Shown: positions 6,531-58,963 of the stretch, one piece after another | Position numbering within the stretch: the stretch's first letter is position 1 | How the letters are laid out: every line of letters starts with the position of its first letter | DNA from: a phage | Assembly (NCBI GenBank): GCA_012401045.1 | Contig: GCA_012401045.1_4704.2 | Reading direction: 5' to 3' (one strand) | DNA: 64,000 nt | Translations under genes and position numbers: made by a program | The notes under the pieces: generated by a model | Database searches by the model: none | What the model was told of the DNA's origin: nothing | Seen by the model: the letters and a program-made list of their open reading frames with translations, nothing else

Positions 6531-6590
6531 AAAAAAAAAAAAAGATTGTACGGTTCCCTCCTCCAACCCGTAAGGGAAGGAGGAAGGTTT
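6531..6590. terminator. bidirectional intrinsic terminator (A13 run plus CCCTCCTCC...GGAGGAAGG hairpin) between convergent genes
   Basis: Hairpin flanked by a 13-nt A run on plus strand (T run for minus-strand transcripts). Confidence 0.7.
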
Positions 6591-6603
6591 ATGACCGCTT
6601 TGA

Positions 6604-7977: not shown

Positions 7978-8053
7978 CGTATTTTACCTTTCTATGTTAG
8001 GTGGATTTCGGATAGAAGAATCAATGCATAAACTAATTTAAGTTTGTTAAGGT

Positions 8054-8956
8054 TTACTTAGCCTTTGAGTTATACGGACTAACATGTTGTTGTACTCGTT
8101 GGATTGTATCGTAGTACGGGTTAAGTTGATTGAACATGTTGTTGTGTGGGTGATAGCCATATGGCGCATTTTGCCTTGTTGGTGAGAAACCTTGTTGAGA
8201 AGGACGGTTTGAATTAACCGCGAGTACGTAGTAAACCAAATTTTGGCGGTCGAACGTTCCTTCGTTTTTGAAGGTGTCGGCGTAGGCGCTTACCGCTGGA
8301 GCGAGCCTATCACCATCGGTTGTAATGATTGTGCCATCGGGATAAACTTCCCGAACGACGCACCATGTTCCGATGAGAACATCTTTGGGTGATGTATTAC
8401 CGTATCCGGTTGTAACGGTAAGGTAAGTATCGAACCCTTCAGAACAACAAGGATGACGATAGATGGGTCCTGTCATTTCCAGTCTATCGGTGTCACCGCA
8501 TTTCTCTATTGAGAGCGATGATGTGTCGGTTTTGAAATTGTCAAATTCTTTCTTTAAGTCGATTACGGGTTCTTTCGTATAGTACTTCTTGATTGCTTTG
8601 ACGTAAAGATCGGGAACGGTTGTCAGCAATCCGTTATACCTGATTCTCAGGTTTTCGAGTAATCCAAAGATGCTCGCGCATGCCTGTTCGCGAGGTTTTG
8701 TAAGATAAGAGATCCCCCCAGGAACGCTGGGATCTTTGAGAAAGAAGATTGCGTTATTGTCGTTGTGCGATGCGTTGAAGAAAACGATTGATTCGATATA
8801 TACGGAGCATAGGCTGTCGTTGGCGTCGTCAGATAACACCCAGATGCACTCATCGGTCGTCTTGTTTAAAAGTTCTGTTTTGTCGACCAAACGTTGTTTC
8901 ATTGCGAGGAAATGTGCCTGTTGTTCAGCGGATAATTCACGATAAATGGTGGTCAT
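8054..8956 (-). CDS. hypothetical protein (300 aa), paralog of 9042..9824
   Basis: AAGGAG RBS; shares [YF]D[RT]YLT[IV]T-G and RE[IV]YPDG-I[VI]T blocks with the adjacent gene. Confidence 0.7.
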   Translation of the reverse strand: MTTIYRELSAEQQAHFLAMKQRLVDKTELLNKTTDECIWVLSDDANDSLCSVYIESIVFFNASHNDNNAIFFLKDPSVPGGISYLTKPREQACASIFGLLENLRIRYNGLLTTVPDLYVKAIKKYYTKEPVIDLKKEFDNFKTDTSSLSIEKCGDTDRLEMTGPIYRHPCCSEGFDTYLTVTTGYGNTSPKDVLIGTWCVVREVYPDGTIITTDGDRLAPAVSAYADTFKNEGTFDRQNLVYYVLAVNSNRPSQQGFSPTRQNAPYGYHPHNNMFNQLNPYYDTIQRVQQHVSPYNSKAK

Positions 8957-9041
8957 GTTGAGCTCCTTGATTACGATAAGGATGATTGCGGTTTTGTGGT
9001 GTTGGTAGGGCCCTAAACAAATGAACCCTACTAATATTAGG

Positions 9042-9824
9042 TTAATCGGGATCGGCGTAGAAATGGTGAGGATAGCCGGAGTACGATCCCGCGTTACCGG
9101 TTATGGATTCTTTCTGGGAATCGACGACGAGTGCATAGAACTGTCGGGAATTTGTTAGCGTTGAGAAATAAGAGGAAAGGACTTTTTCATTCAACGCATC
9201 GCAAGGTAGACAGGTGCGACCGCAAAACGTCACGATACGGCCGTCAGGATAGATCTCACGAATCATTCTCCACTCGCCAATATCGACTGGTGATGGCGCT
9301 GCTACACCACCTGTTATCGTTAAGTAACGATCGTACGTGGTATGGCATTCAGGATGAACGTAAATCGGTTGGGCATCAATACTATCGTTTTCTGTTTGAT
9401 CTTTATTCACGTATACCTCAAGGTAGATTGTTGGTAACCCGGTTAGAACGCCAGTGTCACGACGTTTTTTGGTAATCCGGGGACGGATATTATCGAGCAC
9501 GCCTTCCAGTTTTTCTGCGACTTCGTCAGCCGGTAATATATACCCGTATGTTGGTTCTGGGTCATCACCGTGGCTAAATAAGATACGACAGTCGTTTTTA
9601 TTAAATTCTATATCTTCAGGTGGGAAGATGATGACGCGAACCGTATGGCGTTCTGCGATATAAAATCCTTCAGGCCCCTCAGTTTTGGTAAGTGTAAAGG
9701 ACCAGGATGAATGATCTTCAAGTGACGTGCCTGCCAGGAAAAAGTCCGCCCGAATTGGTGCGTTCCATTTCGCGATCATATTGGCGTGACCAATAACGCC
9801 TAATTTTTGATAAATATCTGTCAT
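9042..9824 (-). CDS. hypothetical protein (260 aa), paralog of 8054..8956
   Basis: ATG with GAGG RBS; conserved promoter-like motif lies upstream; paralogy as above. Confidence 0.7.
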   Translation of the reverse strand: MTDIYQKLGVIGHANMIAKWNAPIRADFFLAGTSLEDHSSWSFTLTKTEGPEGFYIAERHTVRVIIFPPEDIEFNKNDCRILFSHGDDPEPTYGYILPADEVAEKLEGVLDNIRPRITKKRRDTGVLTGLPTIYLEVYVNKDQTENDSIDAQPIYVHPECHTTYDRYLTITGGVAAPSPVDIGEWRMIREIYPDGRIVTFCGRTCLPCDALNEKVLSSYFSTLTNSRQFYALVVDSQKESITGNAGSYSGYPHHFYADPD

Positions 9825-9858: not shown

Positions 9859-9910
9859 GATAACAGTAACCGCTGTTATCACCTAGGTAATGTAGTCGCG
9901 AAATAAACTG
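9859..9910 (-). promoter_or_regulatory. conserved ~30-nt promoter-like motif (ATCACCTAGGTAATGTAGTCGCGAAATAAACTG) with adjacent palindrome GATAACAG-N6-CTGTTATC
   Basis: Near-identical copy at ~47084-47135 and partial copy at ~1696-1715, each upstream of a minus-strand gene start and downstream of a family hairpin. Confidence 0.4.
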
Positions 9911-9930
9911 GAGTAATGCGAAATAAGACA

Positions 9931-9975
9931 GCATAAGCCCTCTCCCAACCCGTAAGGGAAGGGAGAGGGAATATT
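9931..9975 (-). terminator. hairpin of the GCATA-CCCTCTCCC...GGGAGAGGG family
   Basis: Abuts stop of 9974..11341. Confidence 0.55.
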
Positions 9976-11341
9976 AAACGGTTGGACGAACGGTGTTGTC
10001 TTTTTCTGGTGCAAGCCATAACGTGACCGTACCATGGCATGTCCACTGTGGTTCACGTACAGAAGAACCTGCCATTGTAACAGCGCAATCGGTACGCATG
10101 ATAACCCCGTATGCTTCGCAGAGATTGTTATCTTGCATCCACACAACTTTAGCAGGCATGCCGGGATACAACATATCCATGTTTGCGTATTCCCACACCA
10201 ACTGCATTGTTCTACCGCGTAATCCAGCAGTATTACTTAATTCACGCCATCGGTTATCGGTTACGCGTCCCATCCCTTTCGCCACCTTCACGTTATCGCT
10301 ACGTTCTTCAGTTACGTACTCGCTAACGTTTACGGTACGACTGATTATCGTATCACCCCCTTTTGATAACGTCATTCCCTGACTCATCTGACTTGCCGAA
10401 ACAAAACGCCCACCCGCATTACCTAACAACGAAGCCGCGTTATTGATGTCGCTTACCGACGCCCCTCTCGTACATGCAATTTCCACGTATTTGTCACGAT
10501 TGATCCAGGTCTTGTCCATGCCCGGAAACATGTCGGCAGGATAGTTGTAAAAGATAGCCGTGCGCCGACCGTCAGAGAAACGGGTTTCGTCGTAGAGAGG
10601 ATAAATATACAGATACGGAGATTGATAATAACAACCGACATCCGCTGAATAAATACCGACCTGGTTCTGGATTTTGTCTACGAGATCCATTGCGTTGGTG
10701 CCGTGCGGAAGAATAAGCAACTTGAACAGGTTGTCGTTATTCGGTGCAACAATATCCACGCCCTGCATTTTGAACCCGGTGTCGGCTTCAACCGCAGAAA
10801 GTATCTTGCTGAATTCGAGCCGTAACACATCCAGCACTTTCGACCCGGTATAGTTTTCACCGGTTTCTGATTGCATGAAGCTTTCAAGAACAGGATCGAA
10901 CAGTTGAAATTGAAGATCGACCATTTGTTCGTAGTCTTTCTTCGAAGAATCGGTTGCGGTACGTTCGTCGTTAGCAGACATACGACTGTCTACGGTTGTT
11001 AAACAAACCGCTCGGTAGACGTAAGCTTGTGCGGCATCGTCTACGGTTTGGCGTTGTCCGCGCATCAGGCTGTACGCCTGCACGATGATGCGCATTTTAA
11101 GTTGTTGTTGGTACGGTAGAATGTATTTTCCGTAACTGCCGGGCGGGAACTTTACAGAGATATAGAGTTCATCTCCAGCGTTACGTTCATAGTCTCGATA
11201 CGTGTGGACTTGAGTCACTAAAGGAACAGACACCGTCATTGACGGCGTGATTAATTCCGCGGTGACTTTATACGCAACAGCAACTGCTTCCTGCGCAAAT
11301 GTACCGATATACCGTCCTAACGGCGTCTGTTTGTAATCCAT
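9974..11341 (-). CDS. hypothetical protein (455 aa), likely virion-associated
   Basis: Long ORF, stop abuts hairpin terminator; translationally coupled to upstream gene. Confidence 0.7.
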   Translation of the reverse strand: MDYKQTPLGRYIGTFAQEAVAVAYKVTAELITPSMTVSVPLVTQVHTYRDYERNAGDELYISVKFPPGSYGKYILPYQQQLKMRIIVQAYSLMRGQRQTVDDAAQAYVYRAVCLTTVDSRMSANDERTATDSSKKDYEQMVDLQFQLFDPVLESFMQSETGENYTGSKVLDVLRLEFSKILSAVEADTGFKMQGVDIVAPNNDNLFKLLILPHGTNAMDLVDKIQNQVGIYSADVGCYYQSPYLYIYPLYDETRFSDGRRTAIFYNYPADMFPGMDKTWINRDKYVEIACTRGASVSDINNAASLLGNAGGRFVSASQMSQGMTLSKGGDTIISRTVNVSEYVTEERSDNVKVAKGMGRVTDNRWRELSNTAGLRGRTMQLVWEYANMDMLYPGMPAKVVWMQDNNLCEAYGVIMRTDCAVTMAGSSVREPQWTCHGTVTLWLAPEKDNTVRPTV

Positions 11342-18671: not shown

Positions 18672-19778
18672 TTAAAAGTAATATTTCAGCGCCTCGCGAG
18701 AGACATCAAGCATAGCCGCTGTTGAATTCGTAAAGAACTCGGCATAGCCCACAAGCGGCACCTTGATCCACGCGGTATACGCTGTAAGGTATCGAGAAAG
18801 GGCTACCATAGCATCATCAGAAGCAGTAGTAACTGACAACTGACCTTGTTGACGATAAACGTCGTTAAGTTTTGCTTGTAGATTCCCTGCGATTTCGAGT
18901 AACTCGTTGGCGTACTTTTTACGATGGTAACTAACCAGTAAATCAACACCCGTATTTACCGACTCGAGTAGCACACCAACTTGTTCTAATGTTGGCATTG
19001 TAACCACCATATCCCGTTCAACGGACGGTACATCCTGGACTTCAAACCGTGCGGATTGAATAGCGAGGGACTGTTGAATTGAACCAGAACCTGAGGTGGT
19101 AACCTGATCGAGTCGTAGCGTACGGTTACCCAGTAACGTTACATTGACGAGTCTCGATTCGTTCAGCGTACTGTAGACTTTATGCAATAACGTATACGCG
19201 TCACGGTTAATCACATCGATTAATGCGGTATCCGTCTGTTTTAAGATAATGTCGAGCGCTCTATCTAACGTATTAGCGAACTGTTTGAAATCATCACGGA
19301 ACGACGAAGACAAGAGATATTCAGCGATTGCCAAATTCTGTTTGTATAACGTATTCCCAGTTGTGAAGTCGAATCCAAAACTGTTCCCATACCGTAGGTG
19401 CGGTGCCAGCGTTGACGAAGCTTCGAAGCTTTGCGCGATGGGTTTACGACCAACGGCTTTTGTGTAGTGACGGCGGATGTTGCTGAGTTCGAGCTGTAGT
19501 GCGCGACTACGATCGATAAACCGGGCGATAAACGCAGTGATGTTCCGCAACGTTGTCCAGATTGCATCGATGATGGCTTTGATGATTTTCATCGCAAGCT
19601 GATTGTACGATTCCATCGTGAGGAGATCAGCACTTTCCGTGGTATAACTGGTTGTCGGAATACCGCCCGCTTGCTGATAAATGAGCTGGTGAATTTGTCG
19701 TTGCGTTGCTGTCTCTGGCACAGGTAATTTTTTTAACAAGCTTAACGCTTGAATCTGTCCATCATAGGTCTGCAGCAT
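18672..19778 (-). CDS. hypothetical head-associated protein (~368 aa)
   Basis: Track ORF extends to 19820; internal ATG (codon 15) has GAGGA RBS. Amphipathic helix resembles the paralog family below. Confidence 0.65.
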   Translation of the reverse strand: MLQTYDGQIQALSLLKKLPVPETATQRQIHQLIYQQAGGIPTTSYTTESADLLTMESYNQLAMKIIKAIIDAIWTTLRNITAFIARFIDRSRALQLELSNIRRHYTKAVGRKPIAQSFEASSTLAPHLRYGNSFGFDFTTGNTLYKQNLAIAEYLLSSSFRDDFKQFANTLDRALDIILKQTDTALIDVINRDAYTLLHKVYSTLNESRLVNVTLLGNRTLRLDQVTTSGSGSIQQSLAIQSARFEVQDVPSVERDMVVTMPTLEQVGVLLESVNTGVDLLVSYHRKKYANELLEIAGNLQAKLNDVYRQQGQLSVTTASDDAMVALSRYLTAYTAWIKVPLVGYAEFFTNSTAAMLDVSREALKYYF

Positions 19779-21063
19779 TGCTGGTTTCCTCAAGTTCGAG
19801 ATGCGCGTCAAGATAATCATTAAGACCGTCGATGACGTCGCAGACAGTTAACAGGAATCGGGCAAAAGCAACCGCCTGGAAGCCGACGACGTTACGCGCG
19901 ATACCCACACGTTGAACGATAGCGGATGCGGCGGTATCGTTGTTGTCCATCTGTTGTAGCAGGCGCTCGTAAGGTTGAATCCATTCGTCCTGATCGGCAA
20001 GGCTTGCTTCAAGACAACGTTTAAATTCCAACTGTCGTAGCGTAGACCATAACGTACTTAATGCGTTGATGATCGCGTTGGTTCCGTCGATAACATCGTT
20101 TAACGGCAAGAAACGGAATCCGTCTTTTGCTGATTGGAAAGGTACGGCTTCCCACACAACGCTGAATTGCGTTCCTGTTGCGTCTTCGATGTTGTGTAAT
20201 TTAAGATAGGAAGCACCAACAGGTACGTCAACGACTAGATCGTCTGTTCCGGTAGGCGTTAACGGCTTCTCGCATAACGCATCGTTGATGACTTCAAGGA
20301 TATTCTCCCAACAGGCTTCGTTTTCTGCAGCGATACCTTCTTTGTTATCCGCTGATGGTGCTTTTAGTAGCCGCATTAATAACGGATCGAGTTGACGATG
20401 CCACGCTGCGAGGATTCCTGTGTTCGTTACGATGTTTTCTGCGGTTTGTCGTAAATCAGCAATACTGCTTACCGCACCGCCTTTCGGATGAAGATAACGC
20501 CAGTTGTAGGGAAAGTTCTCCCAGAACGCGTTATCTTCATCGACGTCGTATTCGGAAATATTTTTCAACGCAACCGCTTTCTTTAATAACGGCTTCACCT
20601 GACGAACGAATCGACGATAACAACGATTACAGATATCGATCGCGTAACGGTATAACTCGTTCATGTAAAGCCATAACGCTCGGGTTGCTTCTTTTGCGGT
20701 CTTGTCAAAACTTTCCATGTTCAAGCTCATCCCGCTGGAAGTTTCCTCTTCCAGACCCTCGATGATTTGGTTTGGGTCCATCCCCATCCCGGCTGCTGCG
20801 GTTGTTGCGATATGTTTGATGGTGTTAATATCGCGTTCTTCAACTTCAGCCATGTTTGGGACAATATCCAGCCTGAGTTTATTTAATGTTTGAAGGTGTT
20901 GTTCACCTTCTTTCATCACCGTGTTTGTTTCGTCGATTGAGTGAAACTGATTCTCAATATTACTGGCATCGAGAACGTTGCCAGCGATACCGAACGATTC
21001 TACAGGTTCATCATCAATCCCTTGAAATAACGATGTCATGGGTTGTTGTAACACGTTTTCCAT
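19762..21063 (-). CDS. paralogous acidic head-type protein (433 aa), candidate proteolytically processed internal head protein
   Basis: AGGAG RBS; acidic N-terminal region with I-I-E-G motif followed by amphipathic helix, shared with 21212..22501, 22511..23827, 23930..25252 and 35044..37839. Confidence 0.7.
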   Translation of the reverse strand: MENVLQQPMTSLFQGIDDEPVESFGIAGNVLDASNIENQFHSIDETNTVMKEGEQHLQTLNKLRLDIVPNMAEVEERDINTIKHIATTAAAGMGMDPNQIIEGLEEETSSGMSLNMESFDKTAKEATRALWLYMNELYRYAIDICNRCYRRFVRQVKPLLKKAVALKNISEYDVDEDNAFWENFPYNWRYLHPKGGAVSSIADLRQTAENIVTNTGILAAWHRQLDPLLMRLLKAPSADNKEGIAAENEACWENILEVINDALCEKPLTPTGTDDLVVDVPVGASYLKLHNIEDATGTQFSVVWEAVPFQSAKDGFRFLPLNDVIDGTNAIINALSTLWSTLRQLEFKRCLEASLADQDEWIQPYERLLQQMDNNDTAASAIVQRVGIARNVVGFQAVAFARFLLTVCDVIDGLNDYLDAHLELEETSNAADL

Positions 21064-21161
21064 TTGGGACTCCTACGTAGGAAAATCTTGGCGGGTGATC
21101 ATGTCCGCCATTTACCTTCTGAACCGTTGATTCAGAAGTCAAAAGATAACCGGATACCAAC

Positions 21162-21209
21162 GCCATAAACCTTCCTCCAACCCAACAGGGAAGGAGGAAG
21201 GGATATGGT
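21162..21209 (-). terminator. hairpin of the CCTTCCTCC...GGAGGAAGG family
   Basis: Downstream of 21212..22501; two further short palindromes at ~21089-21110 and ~21117-21138 in the same spacer. Confidence 0.55.
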
Positions 21210-21211
21210 GA

Positions 21212-22501
21212 TTATGCTTTTTCGGTCGCTGCGTTGAAGTATTTCGCAGCAGCAAATACAGCATCCGCATATTGACGTATCGAAGCGCGAAGAATCTTGG
21301 TTGACAATACTGTACTTAAACGTGCCATTTCAGAAACCGCGCTTACATAAGGACGGATGGTTTCACGATCGGCTTCAGGCAGCTTGTCAAGCATATCACC
21401 CCACTTCGTTTTGATTTTCATGCCGTTGAGTTTAGCGGTACGCTCCACAGAACCAGCCAAAGCTTCAACCATGTGGAAATAAGAGGAGTCTATCGTACGG
21501 AACACGTTAAGATAGGAAGTCAATGCACCTTTCAGTTCGTTATCGTCTTTGAAAATGTTTGCGTTCTCTATCTCACCGGTCGCCGTCGTCTCGGTTTCAA
21601 CCCGAATATTTTTCACCAACGTGTAGGCTTTAATCGCATCACGTTCGTTTTCAACAGCATCGAGACCTTGAATAACGAAACGTTTCCCACCGCTCTCTGG
21701 AAAAACAACTTTATTCAGAGCCGATTTGATCGCAAGCAGGTATTTGTCTAAGATAGACGGAAGCAGTGTGAGGTCAGTGAGGTCTGCGACCTTTTTATTG
21801 ATATCAGCCACTTGCTTAAACAATGAATCCACCCCGCTTGCGCTTGCAGCGAGTTGTTCGATATGCTTGCTTGCAAACACGGCATTCGCTGATTTCGCAT
21901 TAGGGAACATATTGACCATATTTCCAGTGGGCTTATCCAACTGTTTGATATGGCGCTCACCTTTATTCACAGCGGTTGCGATGTTGACAATTTTGTTGTA
22001 TGCGACAACCAGGTTCTTGAACAACATCTGGAACAGTTTGAACAGCTGCTCAGCGATATTCGCAATGATTACCCAGACCGCATATAACGCTTGTGCTGCG
22101 CGTTCTTTAAAACCTTCCAGTACAATAGCTTGCCCTTCCACCAAACGATCGTCGGCTTGGAACATGTCTTCATCGGACATCCCCAGGTTAGCTGCTGACG
22201 TCGAAGCAATCTGACGGATAAGTGCGATGTCGCTGGCGCGAGCTTCAGGGATCGTAGGTGCGATCATGTACGCGGTATCTTCCAGCGTTGCTGAGGTACG
22301 CACCGCAATTTCAGCCAGTTCGCTGGATTCATCGATCGTCTCGTCGGTACGTCGAATCACCAACTCAACTTCGTCCTCTTCGATTTCTGCGTTAGGATCG
22401 TGTTGCTCCGCTGGAATTGCTGCAAGAAGATCTTCGGCGCTGAGCAATGCGAGTTCGAATGCGTTTTTATTGACGTTATCAAAAAGAGAAATACGTGCCA
22501 T
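21212..22501 (-). CDS. paralogous acidic head-type protein (429 aa)
   Basis: AAGGA RBS; N-terminal acidic region and IVLEGFKERA motif then amphipathic helix; hairpin terminator after stop. Confidence 0.7.
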   Translation of the reverse strand: MARISLFDNVNKNAFELALLSAEDLLAAIPAEQHDPNAEIEEDEVELVIRRTDETIDESSELAEIAVRTSATLEDTAYMIAPTIPEARASDIALIRQIASTSAANLGMSDEDMFQADDRLVEGQAIVLEGFKERAAQALYAVWVIIANIAEQLFKLFQMLFKNLVVAYNKIVNIATAVNKGERHIKQLDKPTGNMVNMFPNAKSANAVFASKHIEQLAASASGVDSLFKQVADINKKVADLTDLTLLPSILDKYLLAIKSALNKVVFPESGGKRFVIQGLDAVENERDAIKAYTLVKNIRVETETTATGEIENANIFKDDNELKGALTSYLNVFRTIDSSYFHMVEALAGSVERTAKLNGMKIKTKWGDMLDKLPEADRETIRPYVSAVSEMARLSTVLSTKILRASIRQYADAVFAAAKYFNAATEKA

Positions 22502-23827: not shown

Positions 23828-23867
23828 GTGTTGTCTCCAGTAATGATTCAAAAGATAAACCTGAGCG

Positions 23868-23913
23868 GCATAGAACCCTCTCCCAACCCGTCAGGGAAGG
23901 GAGAGGGGATATG
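23868..23913 (-). terminator. hairpin of the CCCTCTCCC...GGGAGAGGG family
   Basis: Downstream of the highly expressed gene 23930..25252. Confidence 0.55.
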
Positions 23914-23929
23914 TCAGTTTATTAACTGA

Positions 23930-32129: not shown

Positions 32130-32144
32130 AACAAAATAGCATGA

Positions 32145-32189
32145 GCATAACCCTCCTCCAACCCAACAGGGAAGGAGGAGGGAATATGC
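32145..32189. terminator. bidirectional hairpin terminator (CCCTCCTCC...GGAGGAGGG) between convergent genes
   Basis: Located between stop of 29136..32129 (+) and stop of 32192..34984 (-). Confidence 0.6.
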
Positions 32190-32191
32190 TG

Positions 32192-34984
32192 TTATCTTAC
32201 GTTATTGCTGTTCTGCTGTTCGCTGAACCAACTGTACACCTTGAGATCGGTACCGTATTTCAATGCGATATACGCATTCAGCGCAGCACAGAACAAAGAC
32301 GCGAATGCCCATATCAGCGAAGGATCAACATCTTCCGTTACCACCTGGAGAGTATTATCCGGTTCCCATGATGGAGAACTGTCCATGAACGTCGTGTACC
32401 ATTCCCGCCGTTGTTCTTCGGTGGTAAAGTCGCTATGAGGTTCCAACGCTTCTTTTGCCAGACGTCGATATTCGAACATATGCGTTGCTAAAGCCGACGA
32501 GTTACCAGATTCGCCTTCATAGTTCGGATCCACCGCATAACAGAGTTCTGTTGAATCCAACAAAGCAATCGCTTGTGTGATGCTGTCGGCAGTGCCTGCA
32601 CCATAAAGCTCGATAGACCGCGAAAGCTTTTCACAGAACGCATTTAACGCGGAAGGATTGGACACCTGAAGGTCAAGGCCTAATGTCCACGGATAGTTAC
32701 TGAATACGCCCGTAAACCGCGGCATAACACCCAACAGATGTTGTCCGATTACAGCACGGTTATAAACAGCCCGGTTATAGACTTGAAACGCAGCCTCCAA
32801 AGCTTGGTTATAATGACGACGAAGTTCGTCACGCGAGTTGCGGAATCTGTTTGCCGCAAGACTTGTGGCTGCGACGCTACAAACATCGTAATTGGTGGAC
32901 GAGAGCACAGTTTCGTTAAGATCGAACGATTCCTGTTTCAACGATCCGCTAACCGCTGCTGCTTCGCTGTTTGCTTTATCGACAACAGTACTCAAAGCGT
33001 TGATGTAACGTTTAGCTCGGACTTCCAGCCATTGTGCGATACCGAGAATATCCACCGCGGCTTTAGCAAGATCGCGTGCATTCACGATTTCGTTCTTCAA
33101 CGCCCCTAAACCTTTATTTTCAGGCAATGAGGCTTGTTGACGAATCATGCTGTTCAACATGGTAAGCAGATTATCCAACTCATGTCCACTGACCTTGTTA
33201 CGTGCATCGGTAATAGGACCTTGCAGGAATTTACGGCAACCATCGTTGTATCGAATCAGTTTATCCACATCGATAGATTCGTTCGTGGATTCCTTGAACT
33301 GATTCTTCAATTCTTCACGGTAGTCATGGATTTCACTTGCGAGATTATCGATAGTGATACCATCATATCCAAGAAGAACTTTATTGAAGTTACCTTTCTC
33401 GAATGCAAGAGCAAGACCTTCACGAATCTTAGCGAGTTTGTCCTGATCAAGTTCACGACCGTTCGATAGCTCTTTCACTTCCGAGCTGATTAATGCCGAA
33501 ACGTTACCCAGATTGTCGGTAACTCCTTTGAACGCTCCCGACCAGATCGTTCCTGCTTCAGCGTATTTCGCAATGGTCTGAATACCGACGGTATGCAACG
33601 ACGCTAAACGTTTCTTCGTGCCTTCGGTAAGCAGTGCGTCTTTAGCTCGCGTAAGTTGACTGTTATTAGCTTCCGCTTGCTGGATTGCTGCTTTCGCACT
33701 TCCATTACGCCAGCTCTTAACTAACCAATCAACCAAACGTTTTAGGATGTTGACGGTGTATTCCATTGTCCGCCGTAACGTTTCCCACGCGCTTTCTGCG
33801 GTATAAATGCCGTACCCTTCCATCTTCGTTGGGTCAAAGAAACCTTCCTGCACGAGATCAGTACGTGTGTAGCCATCAGCAGCTTCTACTTCCGCCTGGG
33901 TTTTATCCCAGAAGTCGTCGCTCTTTGCAGCAATCGCTGTATCTTTAACGTCCAGGATGATCTGACCAACCGTTTGTGCAAACAGCAAGGCCGCACGTAC
34001 CGATTGTGCGAACATCCGCTGATATTTGATTCGAACGCATTGCATCTGGGTTAGCAGATTCAGTTGTGCGATCCCATCCAAGGTGCTATCCTGAGCAAGC
34101 CCTTCGGCTTTAGTGATAACCTGTTTTACACGTTCAGCGACATCACCGTACTGCTGGCAAACATCTCGCAGAATACGTGCCGCGAAGACCCCGGTACCGA
34201 TATAGTTCAATAGGTCTTTTAACGACCATTCGGTCGGACAATCGGTCGGCGCAATAGGGAGTAAGCAACCATCACCGTCCATGAATCTCTCTAATGCGCT
34301 AATATCCTGATTTTCTACGCTCATGGGGATATCGACATCAGCCGCTTGCAGATCCAGCATCTGTTGTAGGATGTTGGTATCGGCTTGTACAAGCGTCACA
34401 AGCGCTTGGCTGTGTGCGATTATTGGTAACGCAGGTGACCATACTGCAGCAAGCTTGTCGGCGTGACGTTGAATGGCATACCCCATATCCTCGATCACAT
34501 CGGGATGCTCGATAACCCCCTGAAGCGTTTGATGTAGCTCACCGAGTTGCTGAGACAGATCGACCATCATGGTGTTGAAGGTTTCACCATCCTCTTTGTG
34601 GTTGTCCAGACGCTCGAGTTCATGTCGAAGCAATGTAACGAGCTGTCCGTTGCCTTCTTGCTTCAGCTTGCTTTCCATTAACGTAATGGCTTTATCGACG
34701 ATCTGACACGCTTCACGAAAACCGGTTGTGGAAGGAAGCTCTGTCCATAACGCCAACGGTTTACCGTCAAGGGCTTCCGGCATCGATAAAGAAAGCATAG
34801 ACAGTTGTTGACGTGATACTTGCTGTTCACGGTGTAATGTTTCTTTTAACGCCAGGAGATCGTCAAGAAACGCGCCGTTAAGGGTGGTCGTACGCGGTGT
34901 TGAATTAATACCGTCAGTTAACGATTCAAGCACCAGGAGACCGTTATCAGCTGAAGAGAGTCCCGCGGCAAGATATTTGTTCAT
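32192..34984 (-). CDS. large hypothetical protein (~930 aa)
   Basis: Track ORF extends to GTG at 35041 through a perfect 12-bp-stem hairpin; first ATG is codon 20 with GGAG RBS. Confidence 0.7.
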   Translation of the reverse strand: MNKYLAAGLSSADNGLLVLESLTDGINSTPRTTTLNGAFLDDLLALKETLHREQQVSRQQLSMLSLSMPEALDGKPLALWTELPSTTGFREACQIVDKAITLMESKLKQEGNGQLVTLLRHELERLDNHKEDGETFNTMMVDLSQQLGELHQTLQGVIEHPDVIEDMGYAIQRHADKLAAVWSPALPIIAHSQALVTLVQADTNILQQMLDLQAADVDIPMSVENQDISALERFMDGDGCLLPIAPTDCPTEWSLKDLLNYIGTGVFAARILRDVCQQYGDVAERVKQVITKAEGLAQDSTLDGIAQLNLLTQMQCVRIKYQRMFAQSVRAALLFAQTVGQIILDVKDTAIAAKSDDFWDKTQAEVEAADGYTRTDLVQEGFFDPTKMEGYGIYTAESAWETLRRTMEYTVNILKRLVDWLVKSWRNGSAKAAIQQAEANNSQLTRAKDALLTEGTKKRLASLHTVGIQTIAKYAEAGTIWSGAFKGVTDNLGNVSALISSEVKELSNGRELDQDKLAKIREGLALAFEKGNFNKVLLGYDGITIDNLASEIHDYREELKNQFKESTNESIDVDKLIRYNDGCRKFLQGPITDARNKVSGHELDNLLTMLNSMIRQQASLPENKGLGALKNEIVNARDLAKAAVDILGIAQWLEVRAKRYINALSTVVDKANSEAAAVSGSLKQESFDLNETVLSSTNYDVCSVAATSLAANRFRNSRDELRRHYNQALEAAFQVYNRAVYNRAVIGQHLLGVMPRFTGVFSNYPWTLGLDLQVSNPSALNAFCEKLSRSIELYGAGTADSITQAIALLDSTELCYAVDPNYEGESGNSSALATHMFEYRRLAKEALEPHSDFTTEEQRREWYTTFMDSSPSWEPDNTLQVVTEDVDPSLIWAFASLFCAALNAYIALKYGTDLKVYSWFSEQQNSNNVR

Positions 34985-39840: not shown

Positions 39841-41592
39841 ATGAGCGAACAAGAACGAAAACCTAAGAAGAAACTGCTCGGTATTCAATGTCGACACATC
39901 AGCTATAACGAAGCGAACGATGGCAGCAAGAACGACCTCATGATCGCAAAAGAGATCATGTTCTTTGATGACAATACGCAAGCGACGAACCTTCGCTTCT
40001 TTGAGAATTACAAACGTCCGTTTTGGGTGACGGTAGAGAGTAAACGTAAGAACAAATATAAAAAGGAAAGCGAGAAGCTCTCGCATGTGCGTCGCTACGA
40101 TGTCCGCCAAAGCGAACTGGTTGAAAAGATCAGCTCGGTACTTTATAAAAGACGTGCTGACGATAACACCCGTTTACAGCAGCTTGCACGGAGTCCATAC
40201 CTCTATGGAACGGACGTTAGCGCCAGCTGTTATTTAAAAACCCAGTACAACACAAAATGGCCGGAATACGTCGATAAATTACCCGCTTCCATTGCCTGTT
40301 TCGATATCGAAACCGACGTTGTCCACGGACACGGTAAGATCGTTTGTATGTCTATTACAATGGGATACAATGCGATACTTTGCTATACCAAGGACTTCGT
40401 TGGTCATATTCCGAATGCCATTGAGAAAACCCATGAGAAGATTCGATATTACCTGGCCGAACGTCTGAATACCAAAGAAGATCCCCACGCATTCGAAAAA
40501 TATCAGTACGATGTTCGAATCGTAGAAAGCCCGGCACAAGCGGTCATCCAATGCATGCAGAAGGTTCACGAATGGCAGCCGGATTATCTCCTTGGCTGGA
40601 ATATCGCGTTCGATATTCCGCGCATGCTCCAGGCACTGAACGAGGAAGGGTATCGTCCCGAGGATGTTTTCTCCGATCCCCGTATACCACCTAAATATCG
40701 TATTGCTCGCTGGGTACCACCGAAGACCGACAAGGTATCTGCTTCAGGTCGTAAAACCAACCTTACCCTTGAGCAAACCTGGCCGATGTTTTATACGATG
40801 GCTACGTATCAGGTTATGGATGCGATGTGTGGCTATAAGTTCGTTCGTTTAGGAAGACCGGATGAAGGACGCTATTCACTCGATGCGGTGTTAGAGCGAA
40901 ATAAATGCCATACGAAATTAAAAGCTATTCCTGGTACAGAGGGGTTCACGGAGCTTGCCTGGCACGAAGAGATGCAAACGAACCATCAAATCGACTACGG
41001 CGTATATAACCTTTGGGATAACCAGGGTATTGAGGCGTTGGACCAGAAAACAAAAGACTATTCGATGACCATCCCTATCCGTTTAGCGGCGTCGGATTTG
41101 AAAGATTTCAGTTCTAACCCTAAACGTATCTGCGATAAACTTTTCTTCGTTTATCTTAACCGTGGGGAAGTCATGGGATGTACCGCTGACGACATGACCC
41201 AGGAAGAAGATAAGTGGGTTATCTCACGAGCTGGACATATCGTCACATTACCATGCGATCTCATGGCTGACAACGGCATTCATCTCTTCTGGGATATGCC
41301 GAACCTGAGAAGTTATATCCGTCTATTCGTTGCAGACCTTGACATTAGCAGTTCATACCCGAATGGGCAGATCCTGTTGAATCTATCCAGAGCGTGTGTT
41401 TTTCGCGAGCTCTCACGCATTGAGGGCGTCTCTGACTATCAATTCAGGAAGTTAGGTATCAACTTTATTACCGGAGGTAAAACGAACGCTGTAGACTTCT
41501 GTAGAATCGTTTATAAAGCACCATCGATGTTTGAACTTTTAGAACATTTCGATGCAACGCGTCCAAAAGAGGAAGCGCGGACCATCGAATGA
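39841..41592 (+). CDS. family-B DNA polymerase N-terminal fragment: 3'-5' exonuclease domain plus polymerase motif A
   Basis: Exo I FDIETD, Exo II WNIAFD, Exo III YNLWD, then DISSSYP matching motif A (DxxSLYPS); ORF ends ~80 aa later with no motif B or C. Confidence 0.6.
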   Translation: MSEQERKPKKKLLGIQCRHISYNEANDGSKNDLMIAKEIMFFDDNTQATNLRFFENYKRPFWVTVESKRKNKYKKESEKLSHVRRYDVRQSELVEKISSVLYKRRADDNTRLQQLARSPYLYGTDVSASCYLKTQYNTKWPEYVDKLPASIACFDIETDVVHGHGKIVCMSITMGYNAILCYTKDFVGHIPNAIEKTHEKIRYYLAERLNTKEDPHAFEKYQYDVRIVESPAQAVIQCMQKVHEWQPDYLLGWNIAFDIPRMLQALNEEGYRPEDVFSDPRIPPKYRIARWVPPKTDKVSASGRKTNLTLEQTWPMFYTMATYQVMDAMCGYKFVRLGRPDEGRYSLDAVLERNKCHTKLKAIPGTEGFTELAWHEEMQTNHQIDYGVYNLWDNQGIEALDQKTKDYSMTIPIRLAASDLKDFSSNPKRICDKLFFVYLNRGEVMGCTADDMTQEEDKWVISRAGHIVTLPCDLMADNGIHLFWDMPNLRSYIRLFVADLDISSSYPNGQILLNLSRACVFRELSRIEGVSDYQFRKLGINFITGGKTNAVDFCRIVYKAPSMFELLEHFDATRPKEEARTIE

Positions 41593-41635: not shown

Positions 41636-41685
41636 CGAAGCCCCTCCCCCTGGCGGAAGCCGGAGGGAGGGGTGAGGTTTATGCG
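41636..41685. terminator. bidirectional hairpin (CCCCTCCC...GGGAGGGG) between convergent genes
   Basis: Between stop of DNA polymerase fragment gene (+) and stop of 41679..42164 (-). Confidence 0.55.
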
Positions 41686-42164
41686 CGTTCGTTACCAACC
41701 GTTACTTTGTAGTCAGCGTCGGTTAAGAAAATAGACAGGAATCCATGTTCTTTGCAAATCTTACTAAGGATGTCAGCAATGATTTCGTTGATCATCGGCT
41801 TGTTTGCAAGGGCATAGATGTACCCGGGTGTAAAAGAAAGTGCGTGATTGATCATAGGCTCATGAGAAGCCAAGATAAGGATCACGTGATGCTTCCCATC
41901 GTCGGTAACGACCGCTTGCGTAGACACGAAGAAATCAGTGAAGCAGCAGCGATCACAGGCTTTAGGTATATACAAGTCACCCAGAGCTTCGTCACGTGCT
42001 TTTACGTGTGTTTCAGGGGTGATGCTGCTAAGTTGATCTTCAGCGAGATCCAAGACATCCTCAATCGTTTTAAGAATAGCGTTGCGGAAATCCTCACGGT
42101 AGAATGGGATGATATCACGATCGTTCATGTAATCGCCGGATTCGATAGTAAAGTTGATGTTCAT
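41679..42164 (-). CDS. hypothetical protein (161 aa)
   Basis: AGGAG RBS 6 nt before ATG; convergent with DNA polymerase gene across a hairpin terminator. Confidence 0.65.
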   Translation of the reverse strand: MNINFTIESGDYMNDRDIIPFYREDFRNAILKTIEDVLDLAEDQLSSITPETHVKARDEALGDLYIPKACDRCCFTDFFVSTQAVVTDDGKHHVILILASHEPMINHALSFTPGYIYALANKPMINEIIADILSKICKEHGFLSIFLTDADYKVTVGNERA

Positions 42165-42234
42165 TGAATGCTCCTAGTGGTTATGTCGATTGATCGATGT
42201 ATTGATTTATGTTTGAAGGTGTTGTTCACCTTCG

Positions 42235-42699
42235 TTAGATATCGTCATCCGTGGTGCCGTAGGACATATGCTGAATTAATTTTCTCGGCTCGATGAAAAT
42301 ACGACATGTGATAAACACATCGGGATCGTATTGCTCCACGCAACGTCCGAAGGTTTGTTTTGCGGCTTGGCGCATCGATGTTATTTCCTGATCGTTCATC
42401 GCATTATCGAATTCGATGTTGATCGTGATTTTATCGGGAAATAAATAGATAAAGTAATCGCCGCTGATACCACCATCATCAAAGTGACGTTCATTGTAGC
42501 ACTGGACGAGCTTACCTTCACGTTCTTTCTGATACCATCCAAGGATACTATTAAGACCTCTGTCCACGCATTCGAATGCTTGAGTAATAACATCCTCAAC
42601 GACGGATGCAGGCGTGGGACCATTGAATAGACGATCTAAGCGCTTTTTCATCGATTTGGTTTTCTCGTTCATGATTTCTTTTCCTGTTATAATCGGCAT
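42235..42699 (-). CDS. hypothetical small protein (154 aa; alternative start at 42672)
   Basis: First ATG lies inside a hairpin element; internal ATG (codon 10) has AGGA RBS. C-terminal QYDPD resembles the EYDPD paralog family. Confidence 0.6.
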   Translation of the reverse strand: MPIITGKEIMNEKTKSMKKRLDRLFNGPTPASVVEDVITQAFECVDRGLNSILGWYQKEREGKLVQCYNERHFDDGGISGDYFIYLFPDKITINIEFDNAMNDQEITSMRQAAKQTFGRCVEQYDPDVFITCRIFIEPRKLIQHMSYGTTDDDI

Positions 42700-42740
42700 A
42701 CAACCCTTCCCCGGCCTGATGGCTAGGGAAGGGGCTATGC
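42696..42740 (-). terminator. hairpin variant (GCATA-CCCTTCCCC...GGGAAGGGG-CTATGC)
   Basis: Downstream of 42748..43146. Confidence 0.5.
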
Positions 42741-42747
42741 TACGTTG

Positions 42748-43146
42748 TTATGCTTCGCAATCAGCTGAAGGCGTCGCGCCTTTCTTACCAGCGATACACC
42801 AAATCCGACACGCTGGGTAATGGTTAACCTCTAGAGAGCAAGGAATGTTATATTTCTCTTCCAGCGCATAAAGACATTTCGTTAGCTGCTCCAGCGCGTT
42901 CTCGTCGTGTCGTAACGCGTGGTGGCCTAATCGATGTTGGTCGTTCTTTATATACGCCTCGAAGAGAACATGTTGGCGATGTACGCTGACGTTTACAGCC
43001 TCGAGTATAGCTTGGTCGAGCATACGACTAAAGCACATCAACGAGTCAGATACGTTTTCTCGCTTAACCAGATCAATCATGGCGGGAATATACGAATGGT
43101 CGATGTTATCGATGACCGCTTTAGCGACGGAATCAGCAACGTTCAT
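42748..43146 (-). CDS. small protein (~132 aa), paralog of 43183..43578
   Basis: Track ORF starts at GTG (43176); first ATG (codon 11) aligns with the paralog N-terminus; shared EEKYNIP[CF]SLEVN block. Confidence 0.65.
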   Translation of the reverse strand: MNVADSVAKAVIDNIDHSYIPAMIDLVKRENVSDSLMCFSRMLDQAILEAVNVSVHRQHVLFEAYIKNDQHRLGHHALRHDENALEQLTKCLYALEEKYNIPCSLEVNHYPACRIWCIAGKKGATPSADCEA

Positions 43147-43182
43147 CTTTTTAATCCCTAGTTTGTTATTGATCACGTATAT

Positions 43183-43578
43183 TTACTCTTTGACGTCAGT
43201 TGTCGTTTCGACATGCTTCTCACTACTGACGTACCAGAGCAGGTACGCTGGGAAAAGATTGACCTCTAAGCTAAATGGAATATTGTATTTCTCTTCCATT
43301 TTACAGAGATGTTCTTTAAGTAAATTTCTCGCGTCTCTGTCACCACGAACAGAGTGCCAGTCTAGTTCTTTGTTCTCCTTTACCAGGACCTCTACGATGA
43401 TACGTTGCTCGTGAACCTCGGTTTTCACAGTGAAAAGTAAATCGCTGCTATCAAAACGGGTAAAACGAATGTATGAACCAGGTGTTTTTTCTTGTTTAAT
43501 AATATCGATCATGGTAGAAATGCGCGGATGATCGATGTTGTCGTTAACAGCTTTAACGATGGATTCTACAATGCTCAT
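43183..43578 (-). CDS. small protein (131 aa), paralog of 42748..43146
   Basis: AAGGA RBS; paralogy as above. Confidence 0.65.
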   Translation of the reverse strand: MSIVESIVKAVNDNIDHPRISTMIDIIKQEKTPGSYIRFTRFDSSDLLFTVKTEVHEQRIIVEVLVKENKELDWHSVRGDRDARNLLKEHLCKMEEKYNIPFSLEVNLFPAYLLWYVSSEKHVETTTDVKE

Positions 43579-43610
43579 TTTTTATCCTTAATGTTATCGA
43601 TTTGGAAATA

Positions 43611-44378
43611 TTACTTATTTTTGCTTTCTTTATAGACAGTTGTTACCCACGATGGGAAAGCCGGATGGAAACAGAGCGTGAACGTAACTGTCGTATCGTA
43701 TTTAAACGCACAGTTCACTAACCGGGTATCTAACGTTTTCCTTAATCCGTCATCATCGTTATCGATGATGGTCATATCTCTTAATATCCCAAGCACGTTA
43801 ACGCCATCGGGTGTCTGGGTTACGACAAGTCGTCGTAATGGCCCGCATGTATAGTCACGTACAAATCCTTTCTTCGGGTCCGATACCCTGTTTAACGCAT
43901 CGTGATTTTTGATGAATTCATCGGCGATACAATAGGTTTGTTCCCTTGCTTTATCGGGATCGTATTCTGCTAATAGTTCCTTCGTGTCGAACGTTATCAT
44001 GTTATTATCATTCGATTCAGAAGGGAAGCATAAAACTAAACGAACAGGGTACTCGTATTGATCTGTTCTCGTTTCGAAAGCATTAGCTAAACACGGCTTG
44101 TATGCCTTTGCGTCGACATTGTCCAAACATGGATGCAATAATGCATGAATAACGGCACCATCGTCAGTTAAACCGAATTCCAGAAATTGTACCCTATCAG
44201 TATCCGCTACGGTTTTCTGAAGGTACGCTTTACCGTTAACAATATCGGTATCCCACATATCGTCGTTTAACGATTCTTCAAACTTATCGAATATATGGTT
44301 TACGAGATTGACGAGTTCATCAATACGGCACTGTTGGTTGAATTCGATTAATCGTTGAACTTTATCTTTGATAGACAT
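43611..44378 (-). CDS. hypothetical protein (255 aa) related to the EYDPD small-protein family
   Basis: Contains LAEYDPD block shared with 44381..44839, 44839..45300 and 45372..45866. Confidence 0.65.
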   Translation of the reverse strand: MSIKDKVQRLIEFNQQCRIDELVNLVNHIFDKFEESLNDDMWDTDIVNGKAYLQKTVADTDRVQFLEFGLTDDGAVIHALLHPCLDNVDAKAYKPCLANAFETRTDQYEYPVRLVLCFPSESNDNNMITFDTKELLAEYDPDKAREQTYCIADEFIKNHDALNRVSDPKKGFVRDYTCGPLRRLVVTQTPDGVNVLGILRDMTIIDNDDDGLRKTLDTRLVNCAFKYDTTVTFTLCFHPAFPSWVTTVYKESKNK

Positions 44379-44839: not shown

Positions 44840-45300
44840 TATTCTACCTCTTTCTTCATCTTCATCGGAACAGAGAGTGCTGTTATCTCTGTTCCATTAT
44901 CCGGTTCATACTCCAATGTAACGAGATTGCAGCCATCCGATAATTCATAATCGATCGCTAGGGGGAACGAGATACCGTGCGACTTTATGCATTTACCAAA
45001 TGTCTCGTTGGCTGTATACATTAGAAGTTGCTTTGCGGCAAGCCCGTTTACGCTGAAAGGTAATTGTGCTGTCGCAGCGATACGATTATTGTAAACTCTG
45101 ATATCGGTGATATCTACAATCGTAGCATTGCCGTGTTGTGTTGTTGGAACGGATAGGTTGTAGAAGTAAGGTTCGGAGTCGGAATCGGGCTCGTTAAATA
45201 ATTCCCAGCACCCGTCCTCCTGCAATCTTACTTCGAGTATTTCAAAGCTTTTAATTATCGATTCTACCAGCTGCTCACCGTAAGAATCCCATGTCGTCAT
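44839..45300 (-). CDS. small paralogous protein (153 aa), EYDPD family
   Basis: QLPFSVNG and EYEPDNG blocks. Confidence 0.65.
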   Translation of the reverse strand: MTTWDSYGEQLVESIIKSFEILEVRLQEDGCWELFNEPDSDSEPYFYNLSVPTTQHGNATIVDITDIRVYNNRIAATAQLPFSVNGLAAKQLLMYTANETFGKCIKSHGISFPLAIDYELSDGCNLVTLEYEPDNGTEITALSVPMKMKKEVE

Positions 45301-45371
45301 TTTTTAACACCTTCGACACCTTTTAACCGATACGTGTCCCATCTAACAAGGGACACGATATCGTTGATTAA

Positions 45372-47083: not shown

Positions 47084-47135
47084 GATAAGATATTTTGCTC
47101 TTATCACTAAGGTAATGTAGTCGCGAAATAAACTG
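47084..47135 (-). promoter_or_regulatory. second copy of conserved promoter-like motif with adjacent palindrome GATAAGA-N8-TCTTATC
   Basis: ATCACTAAGGTAATGTAGTCGCGAAATAAACTG; ~70-100 nt upstream of ATG of 46611..47036. Confidence 0.4.
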
Positions 47136-47156
47136 CGTTAACACGAAATAAAAACA

Positions 47157-49791: not shown

Positions 49792-50664
49792 TTAAACCCG
49801 GGTCAGGTCACCGTGACGTGAAACGAACTCTGATAACGCTCGGGTTGCTTCTTTGGATTCTTCAGCCATCGGGAAGTTTGCGGTAATAAGTTCTCGTAAG
49901 ACAGGGACGAGTTCATTATCTTCGAGATCGGAAGCTAAGGCGAATGCAATCAGTTCTTGGGTGTATGCATACGGTTGCTGACGTAATGCAGTAAGCTGAT
50001 CCCGACACTGCGACATTAGCAGGTCCAGTGGAACCGCTATCGTACCCCCTTCATCAATATACTGGCTGAACACCGGTGGGAACGCATCGCTGATGACACG
50101 AATACGTCGACGAATATGATCCGGAATCTGGACGTTTTCTTCGTCGGCGACGTTTTCGCTATCTTTCTCCAGCTTCTTGGTCAGTACCTGCTGGATACGT
50201 GGGAGCAGGCTTGAATGCACAAAACTGATTAATGATGCTACGTCCACAGCATCGACACCGTAAATATAATGCGCGCATTCCGCTAGCGCTTCAGCTGCGG
50301 TGTAGTCTTCATCTTCAACGATAGCGAGTAGAAAAGCGGTATCGTCGTGTGTTTCCAGGTCTAATAACGTAGACGCTAGCGCATGAAGATATTTCAGGCT
50401 ATCCAGAGTTAGCTGCCCTTCGTTAATTCGGATCCCGAAGGCAAGCAATTGTTGTTTATAAAGTTCGATACATCCGTTTGTTAAAATGATGTCTAATTCG
50501 TTTAAATCGTATTGTTCCCCAGCACCTGACAACATCGTACTGCAGAACGTTTCCAGTTGTTCACATTTAAAATCTTGGTATAAACGATGCATGCAGTGCT
50601 GTAACAGCGTACGCCTTGTTTCAGGGATCTTACCTTCTAACAAAGCCAAGACGGAATCAATCAT
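49792..50664 (-). CDS. hypothetical protein (~290 aa)
   Basis: Track ORF starts at GTG (50670); ATG is codon 3 with GGAG RBS. Confidence 0.65.
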   Translation of the reverse strand: MIDSVLALLEGKIPETRRTLLQHCMHRLYQDFKCEQLETFCSTMLSGAGEQYDLNELDIILTNGCIELYKQQLLAFGIRINEGQLTLDSLKYLHALASTLLDLETHDDTAFLLAIVEDEDYTAAEALAECAHYIYGVDAVDVASLISFVHSSLLPRIQQVLTKKLEKDSENVADEENVQIPDHIRRRIRVISDAFPPVFSQYIDEGGTIAVPLDLLMSQCRDQLTALRQQPYAYTQELIAFALASDLEDNELVPVLRELITANFPMAEESKEATRALSEFVSRHGDLTRV

Positions 50665-50760
50665 ATCCACTCCGATGCGGTAAATGTCTACTAGCTCTCA
50701 TAATCTATTGAAGAAACTACCAGCTTACGCCAACTTAGATTAATCAGGAGTAACCATCCC

Positions 50761-53849: not shown

Positions 53850-53859
53850 TGCAAAGGTA

Positions 53860-53905: not shown

Positions 53906-53906
53906 G

Positions 53907-58917: not shown

Positions 58918-58963
58918 TTTATACCTCGTTCCTATTCTCAAAAAGGAAATTTCATACGATGAC

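Follow-up and report, generated by a model that had tools for sequence, protein, structure and literature searches.

The DNA analysed here, which we call the window, is a stretch of 64,000 nucleotides from a phage contig (GCA_012401045.1_4704.2 of the assembly GCA_012401045.1). It is syntenic with the region between 41.5 and 103.5 kb of Escherichia phage vB_EcoM_Goslar and shares 94-98% identity with it over most of its length. The window thus belongs to a Goslar-like chimallivirus of E. coli, i.e. a nucleus-forming jumbo phage. At two sites 21 kb apart it carries the same short sequence with a hairpin, once inside the coding sequence of the gp55-homolog gene (copy 1) and once in the spacer between the homologs of gp71 and gp70 (copy 2). 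The features that matter for the following are these:

19762..21063, minus strand: gp55-homolog gene, homolog of Goslar_00055, 433 aa, probable donor of the repeat
20886..20910, minus strand: copy 1, exact 25-mer in the gp55-homolog coding sequence, mRNA sense GAAGGTGAACAACACCTTCAAACAT, gene nt 154-178
41641..41672, minus strand: strong terminator with a GC-rich hairpin (dG about -28 kcal/mol) and a T-rich tail, which closes the two-gene unit
41679..42164, minus strand: gp70-homolog gene (Goslar_00070), downstream cistron, 161 aa
42165..42234, minus strand: intercistronic spacer of 70 nt, composed of 1 nt, the 19-nt hairpin and a 50-nt leader
42209..42233, minus strand: copy 2, exact 25-mer within the gp71/gp70-homolog spacer
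42215..42233, minus strand: intercistronic stem-loop GAAGGUG-AACAA-CACCUUC, 7 bp, dG -8.4 kcal/mol
42235..42672, minus strand: gp71-homolog gene (Goslar_00071), 145 aa, start as called in relatives
42238..42252, minus strand: deletion junction; similarity to the gp71 homolog of divergent relatives can be followed as far as 42252, and the 3' end of their gene X' is matched from 42246 on
42697..42734, minus strand: strong GC-rich hairpin at 42704-42734 (dG about -23 kcal/mol), then TATG at 42700-42697

The exact shared sequence is the 25-mer ATGTTTGAAGGTGTTGTTCACCTTC, found at 20886-20910 and 42209-42233 when the plus strand is read. A preliminary description of this DNA had reported an exact repeat of about 28 nt with a 7-bp-stem hairpin, located within 19762..21063 and again just past the stop of 42235..42699. 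Both loci and the hairpin at each of them were confirmed, but the exact part comprises 25 nt only. The quoted 28-mer is exact solely at 42206-42233, and the coding copy at 20883-20910 reads TTAATG... and differs from it by one mismatch. If two mismatches are allowed, the repeat stretches to 31 nt (repeat family D14). The palindrome GAAGGTG-N5-CACCTTC within the repeat has a stem of 7 bp and a loop of 5 nt and occupies 20892-20910 and 42215-42233. The ATG on the plus strand opens an ORF of 9 codons at copy 2 and one of 64 codons, antisense to the gene, at copy 1; we read neither of them as a gene.

The window contains 46 perfect 7-bp hairpins with loops of 3-8 nt and therefore the hairpin alone is unremarkable. 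The length of the repeat is not. No match was obtained in 100 dinucleotide shuffles of the window. Simulating it 30 times with a third-order Markov model gave longest exact repeats of 15-20 nt, compared with the observed 25 nt, and by our own arithmetic a 64-kb sequence should contain about 2e-6 chance pairs of 25-mers. The repeat is genuine and chance does not account for it, as had been supposed in the preliminary description. Flanking sequences of the two loci showed no significant similarity to each other (P = 0.08-1.0). A search for further copies, which had been proposed earlier, returned only the two known ones from the window with up to three mismatches and one from the complete Goslar genome (237 kb). 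Likewise, no third copy of the palindrome was found in the window with a free loop and two mismatches allowed, and the 25-mer was absent from the bacterial and archaeal genome collection. The word TCAAACAT and related words were not enriched, which leaves a dispersed motif or promoter word unsupported, and the many intergenic copies of a dispersed repeat family (REP/MITE-like or a reiterated regulatory motif) were not found either.

At copy 1 the repeat consists of the codons GAA GGT GAA CAA CAC CTT CAA ACA T, that is codons 52-59 (EGEQHLQT) and the first base of codon 60. The next gene (21212..22501) is a distant paralog of the gp55 homolog, and the copy-1 segment aligns with it without gaps (22% identity, E = 6e-9), which argues for an old segment that is an integral part of the protein. 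The peptide MKEGEQHLQTLNKL is invariant in all 15 of the 15 aligned gp55 homologs, which fall into two clades (95% and ~86%). At the DNA level the 25-mer is the same in both clades, between which the whole gene is 81% identical, and it is also identical in Goslar and in the IMG/VR relatives. The sole variant is a synonymous CAA>CAG exchange in the loop in the assembly L019. Around copy 1 a run of 9 codons has zero fixed synonymous differences between the clades (a priori P ~0.01); comparable runs are common throughout the gene (P = 0.89 in a scan of synonymous sites), and the synonymous conservation at this pre-specified site is suggestive only. The earlier label of a head protein is acceptable for this gene, as Goslar gp55 is predicted to adopt a PF12699 'inner-body' fold and is present in about 50 copies per virion (bioRxiv 10.64898/2026.04.21.720040). 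Yet the protein of the window itself had no match in Pfam or PHROGs, and neither database gave a family for the gp70 and gp71 homologs; the neighbouring gp54 homolog showed a weak match to PF12699. Copy 1 is ordinary coding sequence in which the palindrome is incidental, and since the segment is old and constrained, the gene is favoured as the donor.

Copy 2 begins 1 nt past the stop codon of the gp71 homolog (42237-42235), and from its hairpin it is another 50 nt to the start of the gp70 homolog (42164). For the gp71 homolog the start at 42672 is likelier than the start of the mechanical ORF at 42699. The two-gene unit is probably opened by the terminator together with a late-promoter-like motif at 42697..42734. 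Public assemblies contain a gp70-homolog protein identical to that of the window in at least 117 blocks. Four of the seven pairs in the stem are G-C pairs. The 3' sequence is AAACAUAAAU and lacks a U tract, the stem is followed downstream by AAACAUAAAUCAAUAC, and a terminator scan did not flag the hairpin. All spacer alleles have the 50-nt leader in common (TCAAACATAAAT.AATAC.TC.ATCAATCGACA...AGGAG). A promoter motif on the coding strand was not found at copy 2, which lies inside the transcription unit, and the site of copy 1 is located deep in the coding region. Rfam 15 gave no match at E <= 1 around either copy. The region of copy 2 differs from Goslar by several indels, its small-gene cassettes vary, and an HNH/NUMOD1 endonuclease gene ~0.6 kb away is present in some relatives and absent in others; the region is generally recombination-prone.

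In order to follow the spacer among relatives it was collected from 27 further loci. At least five allele classes were found, and the gene segment is invariant in the homologs. In type A the exact 25-mer stands in a 70-nt spacer; this allele is present in the window and in eight independent assemblies besides it, drawn from ENA metagenomes and NCBI isolate assemblies, with or without the HNH endonuclease gene. Type A2 (L036-L040) has the same stem with the loop AACAG, a gp70 homolog of ~80% identity and an upstream gene, X', which is different from that of the window and ends in ..EYTPDDI*. The inverted form of type A (L033-L035) reads GATGGTG-TTGCT-CACCTTC, with the loop inverted and one mismatch in the stem. 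Decayed sequences such as GAAGGTGCAACCCTTC follow a gene X (..NFEYIPD*) in type C (L017, L041/L042 and L047). The left arm is missing in type B, either with a gene remnant in its place (Goslar, L015, L016, L025 and L032) or with an intact gene that reads through TCAAACATAAATTAA (L010 and L048). These classes are scattered over the whole range of gp70-homolog similarity (78-100%), which indicates that recombination has reassorted spacer and gene. Among these relatives the spacer copy is a polymorphic allele that is inherited. Hence, the repeat is kept in relatives in a different manner at its two sites, namely as a gene copy in all relatives that were read and as a spacer copy that is exact in eight other assemblies and polymorphic elsewhere. 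The absence of the copies from all related genomes, which the preliminary description had named as evidence against the repeat, was therefore not observed.

Between the window and L036 the 30-nt block of the hairpin is the best conserved part with 29 of 30 identical positions, compared with 13-28 elsewhere (a priori P ~0.008 by a binomial estimate from ~79% identity). The loop AACAG was read in the spacer of L036-L040 and in the gene of L019, i.e. in different assemblies; the contigs with the AACAG spacer are at most 18 kb long and the two sites are 21 kb apart. Co-variation of gene site and spacer site could not be demonstrated, the gene site being constant in both gp55-homolog clades. Only in the window were both exact copies read together in one genome. 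The three related contigs in IMG/VR each have the gene copy alone, and the collections of complete E. coli genomes and plasmids contained no relatives. Neither the window's exact gp55-homolog protein nor the exact 154-aa product of the mechanical ORF 42235..42699 is recorded for any complete type-A contig.

The allele of the window has a history of its own. In four of the four divergent relatives that were read (L017, L033, L036 and L041) the gp71 homolog is followed by a gene Y, a gene X, the spacer and the gp70 homolog. Genes Y and X, two small genes of together ~975 nt, are missing from the window. The tail of its gp71 homolog (..SYGTT-DDDI*) corresponds to ..SYGTTD of the gp71 homolog of relatives joined to DDI* of X', so that the last codons ..TDDDI* come from gene X'. 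A CGGAT microhomology and an additional GAY triplet are found at the junction, from which copy 2 is ~10 nt away. As read from these homology boundaries, the allele of the window evidently arose through a deletion of ~975 nt next to the hairpin. A deletion from an arrangement of X', hairpin and gp70 homolog means that the window inherited the hairpin and did not create it.

The explanation that we prefer, and which we hold to be somewhat likelier true than false, is that a short stretch of the gene was long ago copied ectopically into the spacer and was later shuffled, inverted, decayed or deleted depending on the lineage. In an ancestor of the Goslar-like phages, templated break repair or illegitimate recombination would have placed ~25-28 nt of gp55-homolog coding sequence in the spacer in front of the gp70 homolog. 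Since then the spacer copy would have been inherited as one allele among others, subject to substitution in the loop, inversion of the loop, decay and deletion of the left arm, and the alleles would have been reshuffled among lineages. Through the ~975-nt deletion in the lineage of the window, the gp71 homolog finally acquired the last codons of the gene formerly located in front of the hairpin. An old ectopic copy best explains why the spacer copy is identical to the gene. As expected for an ectopic duplication, 25 of 25 nt are identical, the patch is short and lies between flanks without significant similarity, the donor is old and constrained, and the recipient is polymorphic among relatives. 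Of the suggestions made in the preliminary description a recombination footprint fits best, given the polymorphic allele, the recombination-prone cassette region and the nearby deletion junction. What we infer from this pattern is that the gene was the source and the spacer the target, that the copying happened once and long ago, and that there may be some role in cis. Today the element would be an RNA stem-loop within a two-gene transcription unit, which could act at most in cis, as a weak barrier to 3' exonucleases or as a pause site by which the two cistrons are balanced against each other; it would be dispensable. The two copies are not a working pair. The original insertion junctions are no longer legible. 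A candidate for microhomology from the copying is C(C)[A/T]TCAAACAT, which the gene has in common with the alleles that lack the hairpin; the ancestral state may have been hairpin-bearing or hairpin-less.

Several other explanations have to be weighed against the ectopic copy. The stem-loop of the spacer could be under selection as a partial terminator, an attenuator or a site of mRNA stabilisation or processing, with its identity to the gene reflecting history. The perfect stem is kept where the gp70 homolog is only ~80% identical, the hairpin block is best conserved there, and the loop-inverted allele retains most of the stem. Besides, mapped terminators of phage 201phi2-1 reach values of -6.9 kcal/mol and many 3' ends lack a classical motif (PMC11512511). 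However, none of the seven pairs is altered on both sides and every change in the stem breaks a pair, so the compensatory changes that mark a conserved structured RNA are missing. The U tract of an intrinsic (Rho-independent) terminator is lacking as well and the terminator scan was silent; in many viable lineages, the laboratory phage Goslar among them, the stem is gone or decayed, and with -8.4 kcal/mol it is far weaker than the terminators of its own unit (-23 and -28 kcal/mol). Judged from these comparisons, selection on the hairpin is unlikely, although it deserves consideration. Accordingly, the earlier notion of a small regulatory hairpin could survive in a weak sense in cis, but the missing compensatory changes and U tract and the viable relatives without the stem speak against anything beyond that. 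The notion of an antisense-pairing site finds no support. The copies are direct repeats that are both mRNA-sense, which means that their transcripts are identical and not complementary and that simple antisense pairing is excluded; between the transcripts of the two copies only the palindromic arms could pair. An antisense promoter on the plus strand has also to be considered, in which TATG (42208-42211) is followed by the hairpin and a putative RNA would run into the gp71 homolog. In the late promoters of phiKZ the consensus is TATG, and transcription starts at its G (PMC4666361); most spacer alleles contain the complement of CATAAAT (..ATTTATG), and antisense RNAs have been reported in phiKZ according to a statement cited in bioRxiv 10.1101/2023.09.22.559000. 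On the other hand, TATG is needed but insufficient by itself and is very common (PMC4666361). Copy 1 has AATG, the alleles of L017 and L047 are without TATG, and functional-looking TATG motifs in this DNA directly follow GC-rich hairpins, unlike that of copy 2. We regard such a promoter as very improbable.

A different kind of explanation connects the two sites. In a functionally coupled pair, or under concerted evolution, one trans-acting factor would act at both copies or repeated gene conversion would keep them alike, which is distinctly unlikely; such a factor might be a protein that binds RNA, an RNase, or a dimer that binds DNA at the 19-bp palindrome. The exact identity of the repeat in nine genomes agrees with such a pair, and so do the missing fixed synonymous differences in the gene copy, the position of the spacer copy in an island of conservation and the occurrence of AACAG at each site, albeit in different assemblies. 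Arms such as a palindromic operator would have, GAAGGTG-N5-CACCTTC, are present with varying loops (AACAA, AACAG and TTGCT). Conservation of the hairpin block and the synonymous run could come from selection at the nucleotide level or from repeated homogenisation. Against a coupled pair, the gene site is constant in both clades while the spacer is decayed, inverted or deleted in several lineages, a run of 9 codons without fixed differences is ordinary in this gene (P = 0.89), and there are two sites only, of which Goslar has one. An old copy furthermore stays exact solely in a slowly changing stretch, and thus the conservation is in part a selection effect of how the repeat was discovered. That the 25-mer might be a shared cis element which links the PF12699 'inner-body' virion gene to the small gp71/gp70 cassette appears quite improbable to us. 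Little credit can also be given to the associated proposals that one phage factor would bind both sites or that repeated gene conversion would preserve their identity, and it is similarly doubtful that the missing synonymous change would reflect an RNA- or DNA-level function inside the coding region. Initially, we had considered a recent, lineage-specific patch, for which the lineage of the window would have copied 17 nt from the gene during break repair. When only Goslar and UViG_3300045988 are compared, a conserved block of ~45 nt seems to be replaced by gene sequence next to the microhomology CCTTCAAACAT. Nevertheless, the initial model was rejected on the hairpins of divergent relatives: far more divergent lineages have the same hairpin here after a different upstream gene, and the 'conserved block' of Goslar is what remains of the 3' part of a small gene, still intact in L010, L017 and L048, which makes a recent patch hardly credible. 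A chance match or an assembly artefact, finally, is of negligible probability. Nothing except the short length of the repeat speaks for it, 25 nt were never reached in shuffles or Markov simulations, and the same spacer allele occurs in eight independent assemblies from ENA and NCBI.

The ectopic copy from gene to spacer agrees with processes known from other systems. Phage genomes are mosaic and acquire short ectopic (templated) transfers as well as illegitimate recombination at short homologies. Similar to such transfers, the spacer shares a short identical patch with a distant donor and the recipient site is polymorphic and lies in a recombination-prone cassette region, and the neighbouring deletion junction with its microhomology resembles illegitimate recombination. 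Unlike in templated transfers, the original junctions of the spacer copy are unreadable and the event is old, the lineages being ~20% diverged, so that the mechanism is one that we infer. Template switching at a hairpin classically leaves an inverted loop. Minute inversions of hairpin loops have been described for chloroplast spacers, and in T4, Ripley's model reportedly explains mutagenesis by template switching at quasi-palindromes. The allele in which exactly the loop is inverted between conserved arms would fit template switching. Intercistronic stem-loops can shield an upstream cistron from 3' exonucleases or partly terminate transcription, as is known for the REP stem-loops of the malEFG operon of E. 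coli. Like the REP stem-loops of malEFG, copy 2 lies directly past a stop codon in a polycistronic unit and is moderately stable. Unlike REP, it is confined to a single locus, lacks compensatory evolution and is absent from close viable relatives. With the signals of the chimalliviruses phiKZ and 201phi2-1 it shares the intergenic position and the same type of genome, and its free energy is in the lower range of the mapped terminators of 201phi2-1 (PMC11512511). The terminator family of the window itself has GC stems of 9-10 bp, free energies of -23 to -28 kcal/mol and CATA/TATG flanks; copy 2 lacks a stem of this kind and also a U tract.

Taken together, the element is a new example of known processes and not a new kind of system. 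If the reading of coupled sites were true, it would constitute a rare cis element inside the coding sequence of a chimallivirus virion protein. An exact 25-nt repeat with a neat hairpin looks regulatory, and caution is advised here, since ~25 related genomes show a dispensable allele in a shuffled spacer. This spacer provides a small but well-resolved example of how spacers evolve in the variable small-gene cassettes of nucleus-forming jumbo phages, where ectopic copying, microhomology deletion, hairpin-loop inversion and decay are illustrated side by side.

Besides the 25-mer, the main repeat with one copy (copy 1) inside the gp55 homolog and another (copy 2) in the gp71/gp70 spacer, we identified a 22-nt exact repeat, ATAACGCTCGGGTTGCTTCTTT, with two copies in the window:

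20673-20694, within the gp55 homolog
49833-49854, near the C-terminus of ORF 49792..50670 (gp79 homolog, phrog_5038)

Both copies encode KEATRAL in frame, and apart from this stretch the gp55 and gp79 homologs are unrelated proteins. Relatives also carry both copies, with a 20/22 match in Escherichia phage vB_EcoM_Goslar (Goslar). Codons 126-136 of the gp55 homolog, its longest stretch without a fixed synonymous difference between the two clades, overlap ATAACGCTCGGGTTGCTTCTTT. The gp55 homolog takes part in two short repeats, the 25-mer and ATAACGCTCGGGTTGCTTCTTT, each of which is improbable. Smaller matches were observed near copy 1, within the gp55-homolog gene:

20812-20826 and 20927-20944, the matches AACACCATCAAACAT and TCAATCGAC

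In mRNA sense, AACACCATCAAACAT is a 14/15 near-repeat of the right half of the 25-mer in a different reading frame. TCAATCGAC is also present downstream of copy 2, its order relative to the 25-mer being opposite at the two loci. Both matches are probably due to chance.

The polymerase-like gene at 39841-41592 is a single uninterrupted 583-aa ORF, with a junction at ~41336-41356. In the Goslar record, pfam03104 (DNA_pol_B_exo1) is annotated on the 500-aa counterpart Goslar_00068, which is followed by 1.8 kb bearing the NUMOD1/HNH endonuclease gene Goslar_00069. A Pfam search of the 583-aa ORF gave no match, and an Rfam search of the 1.8-kb Goslar stretch at the gathering threshold did not find a group I intron. 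The intact 583-aa form is also present at the related-phage loci L023, L024 and L031, and other relatives have HNH genes of 368-403 aa. Compared with Goslar, the window also contains a 1.8-kb insertion at 8030-9820, with just ~90 nt corresponding in Goslar. It holds two ORFs, neither with a Pfam match:

8054..8956, minus strand, ORF
9042..9824, minus strand, ORF

Moreover, a variable small-gene array lies at 42748-44378 and 44840-45394; in Goslar and other related phages, segments of it are either missing or have been replaced. Judging by their N-termini (MNVADSVAKAVIDNIDHSYIPAMIDLVKRENV and MSIVESIVKAVNDNIDHPRISTMIDIIKQEKT), ORFs 42748..43176 and 43183..43578 are evidently paralogs, and an ATAAC...TAGGAG pattern is common to the leaders of the array genes.

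An intergenic motif, TCACCTAGGTAATGTA..CG..AAAT, is repeated at 1696-1721, 9872-9926 and 47097-47151; the 26-nt AGGTAATGTAGTCGCGAAATAAACTG, part of this motif, occurs exactly at both 9885 and 47110. The motif is promoter-like and a candidate promoter. The window further contains a family of GC-rich hairpins of the form CCCTCCTCC-AACCCGTAAGGGAA-GGAGGAGGG:

6546-6593, GC-rich hairpin
9928-9990, GC-rich hairpin
21160-21222, GC-rich hairpin
23866-23928, GC-rich hairpin
32141-32203, GC-rich hairpin
53856-53918, GC-rich hairpin
58962-59000, GC-rich hairpin

The hairpins bounding the gp71-gp70 unit (41641-41672 and 42704-42734) share the style of this family. Often CATA stands on one side of the family members and TATG on the other, and they look like bidirectional terminators adjoining the TATG late-promoter motif, which is known in phiKZ (PMC4666361).
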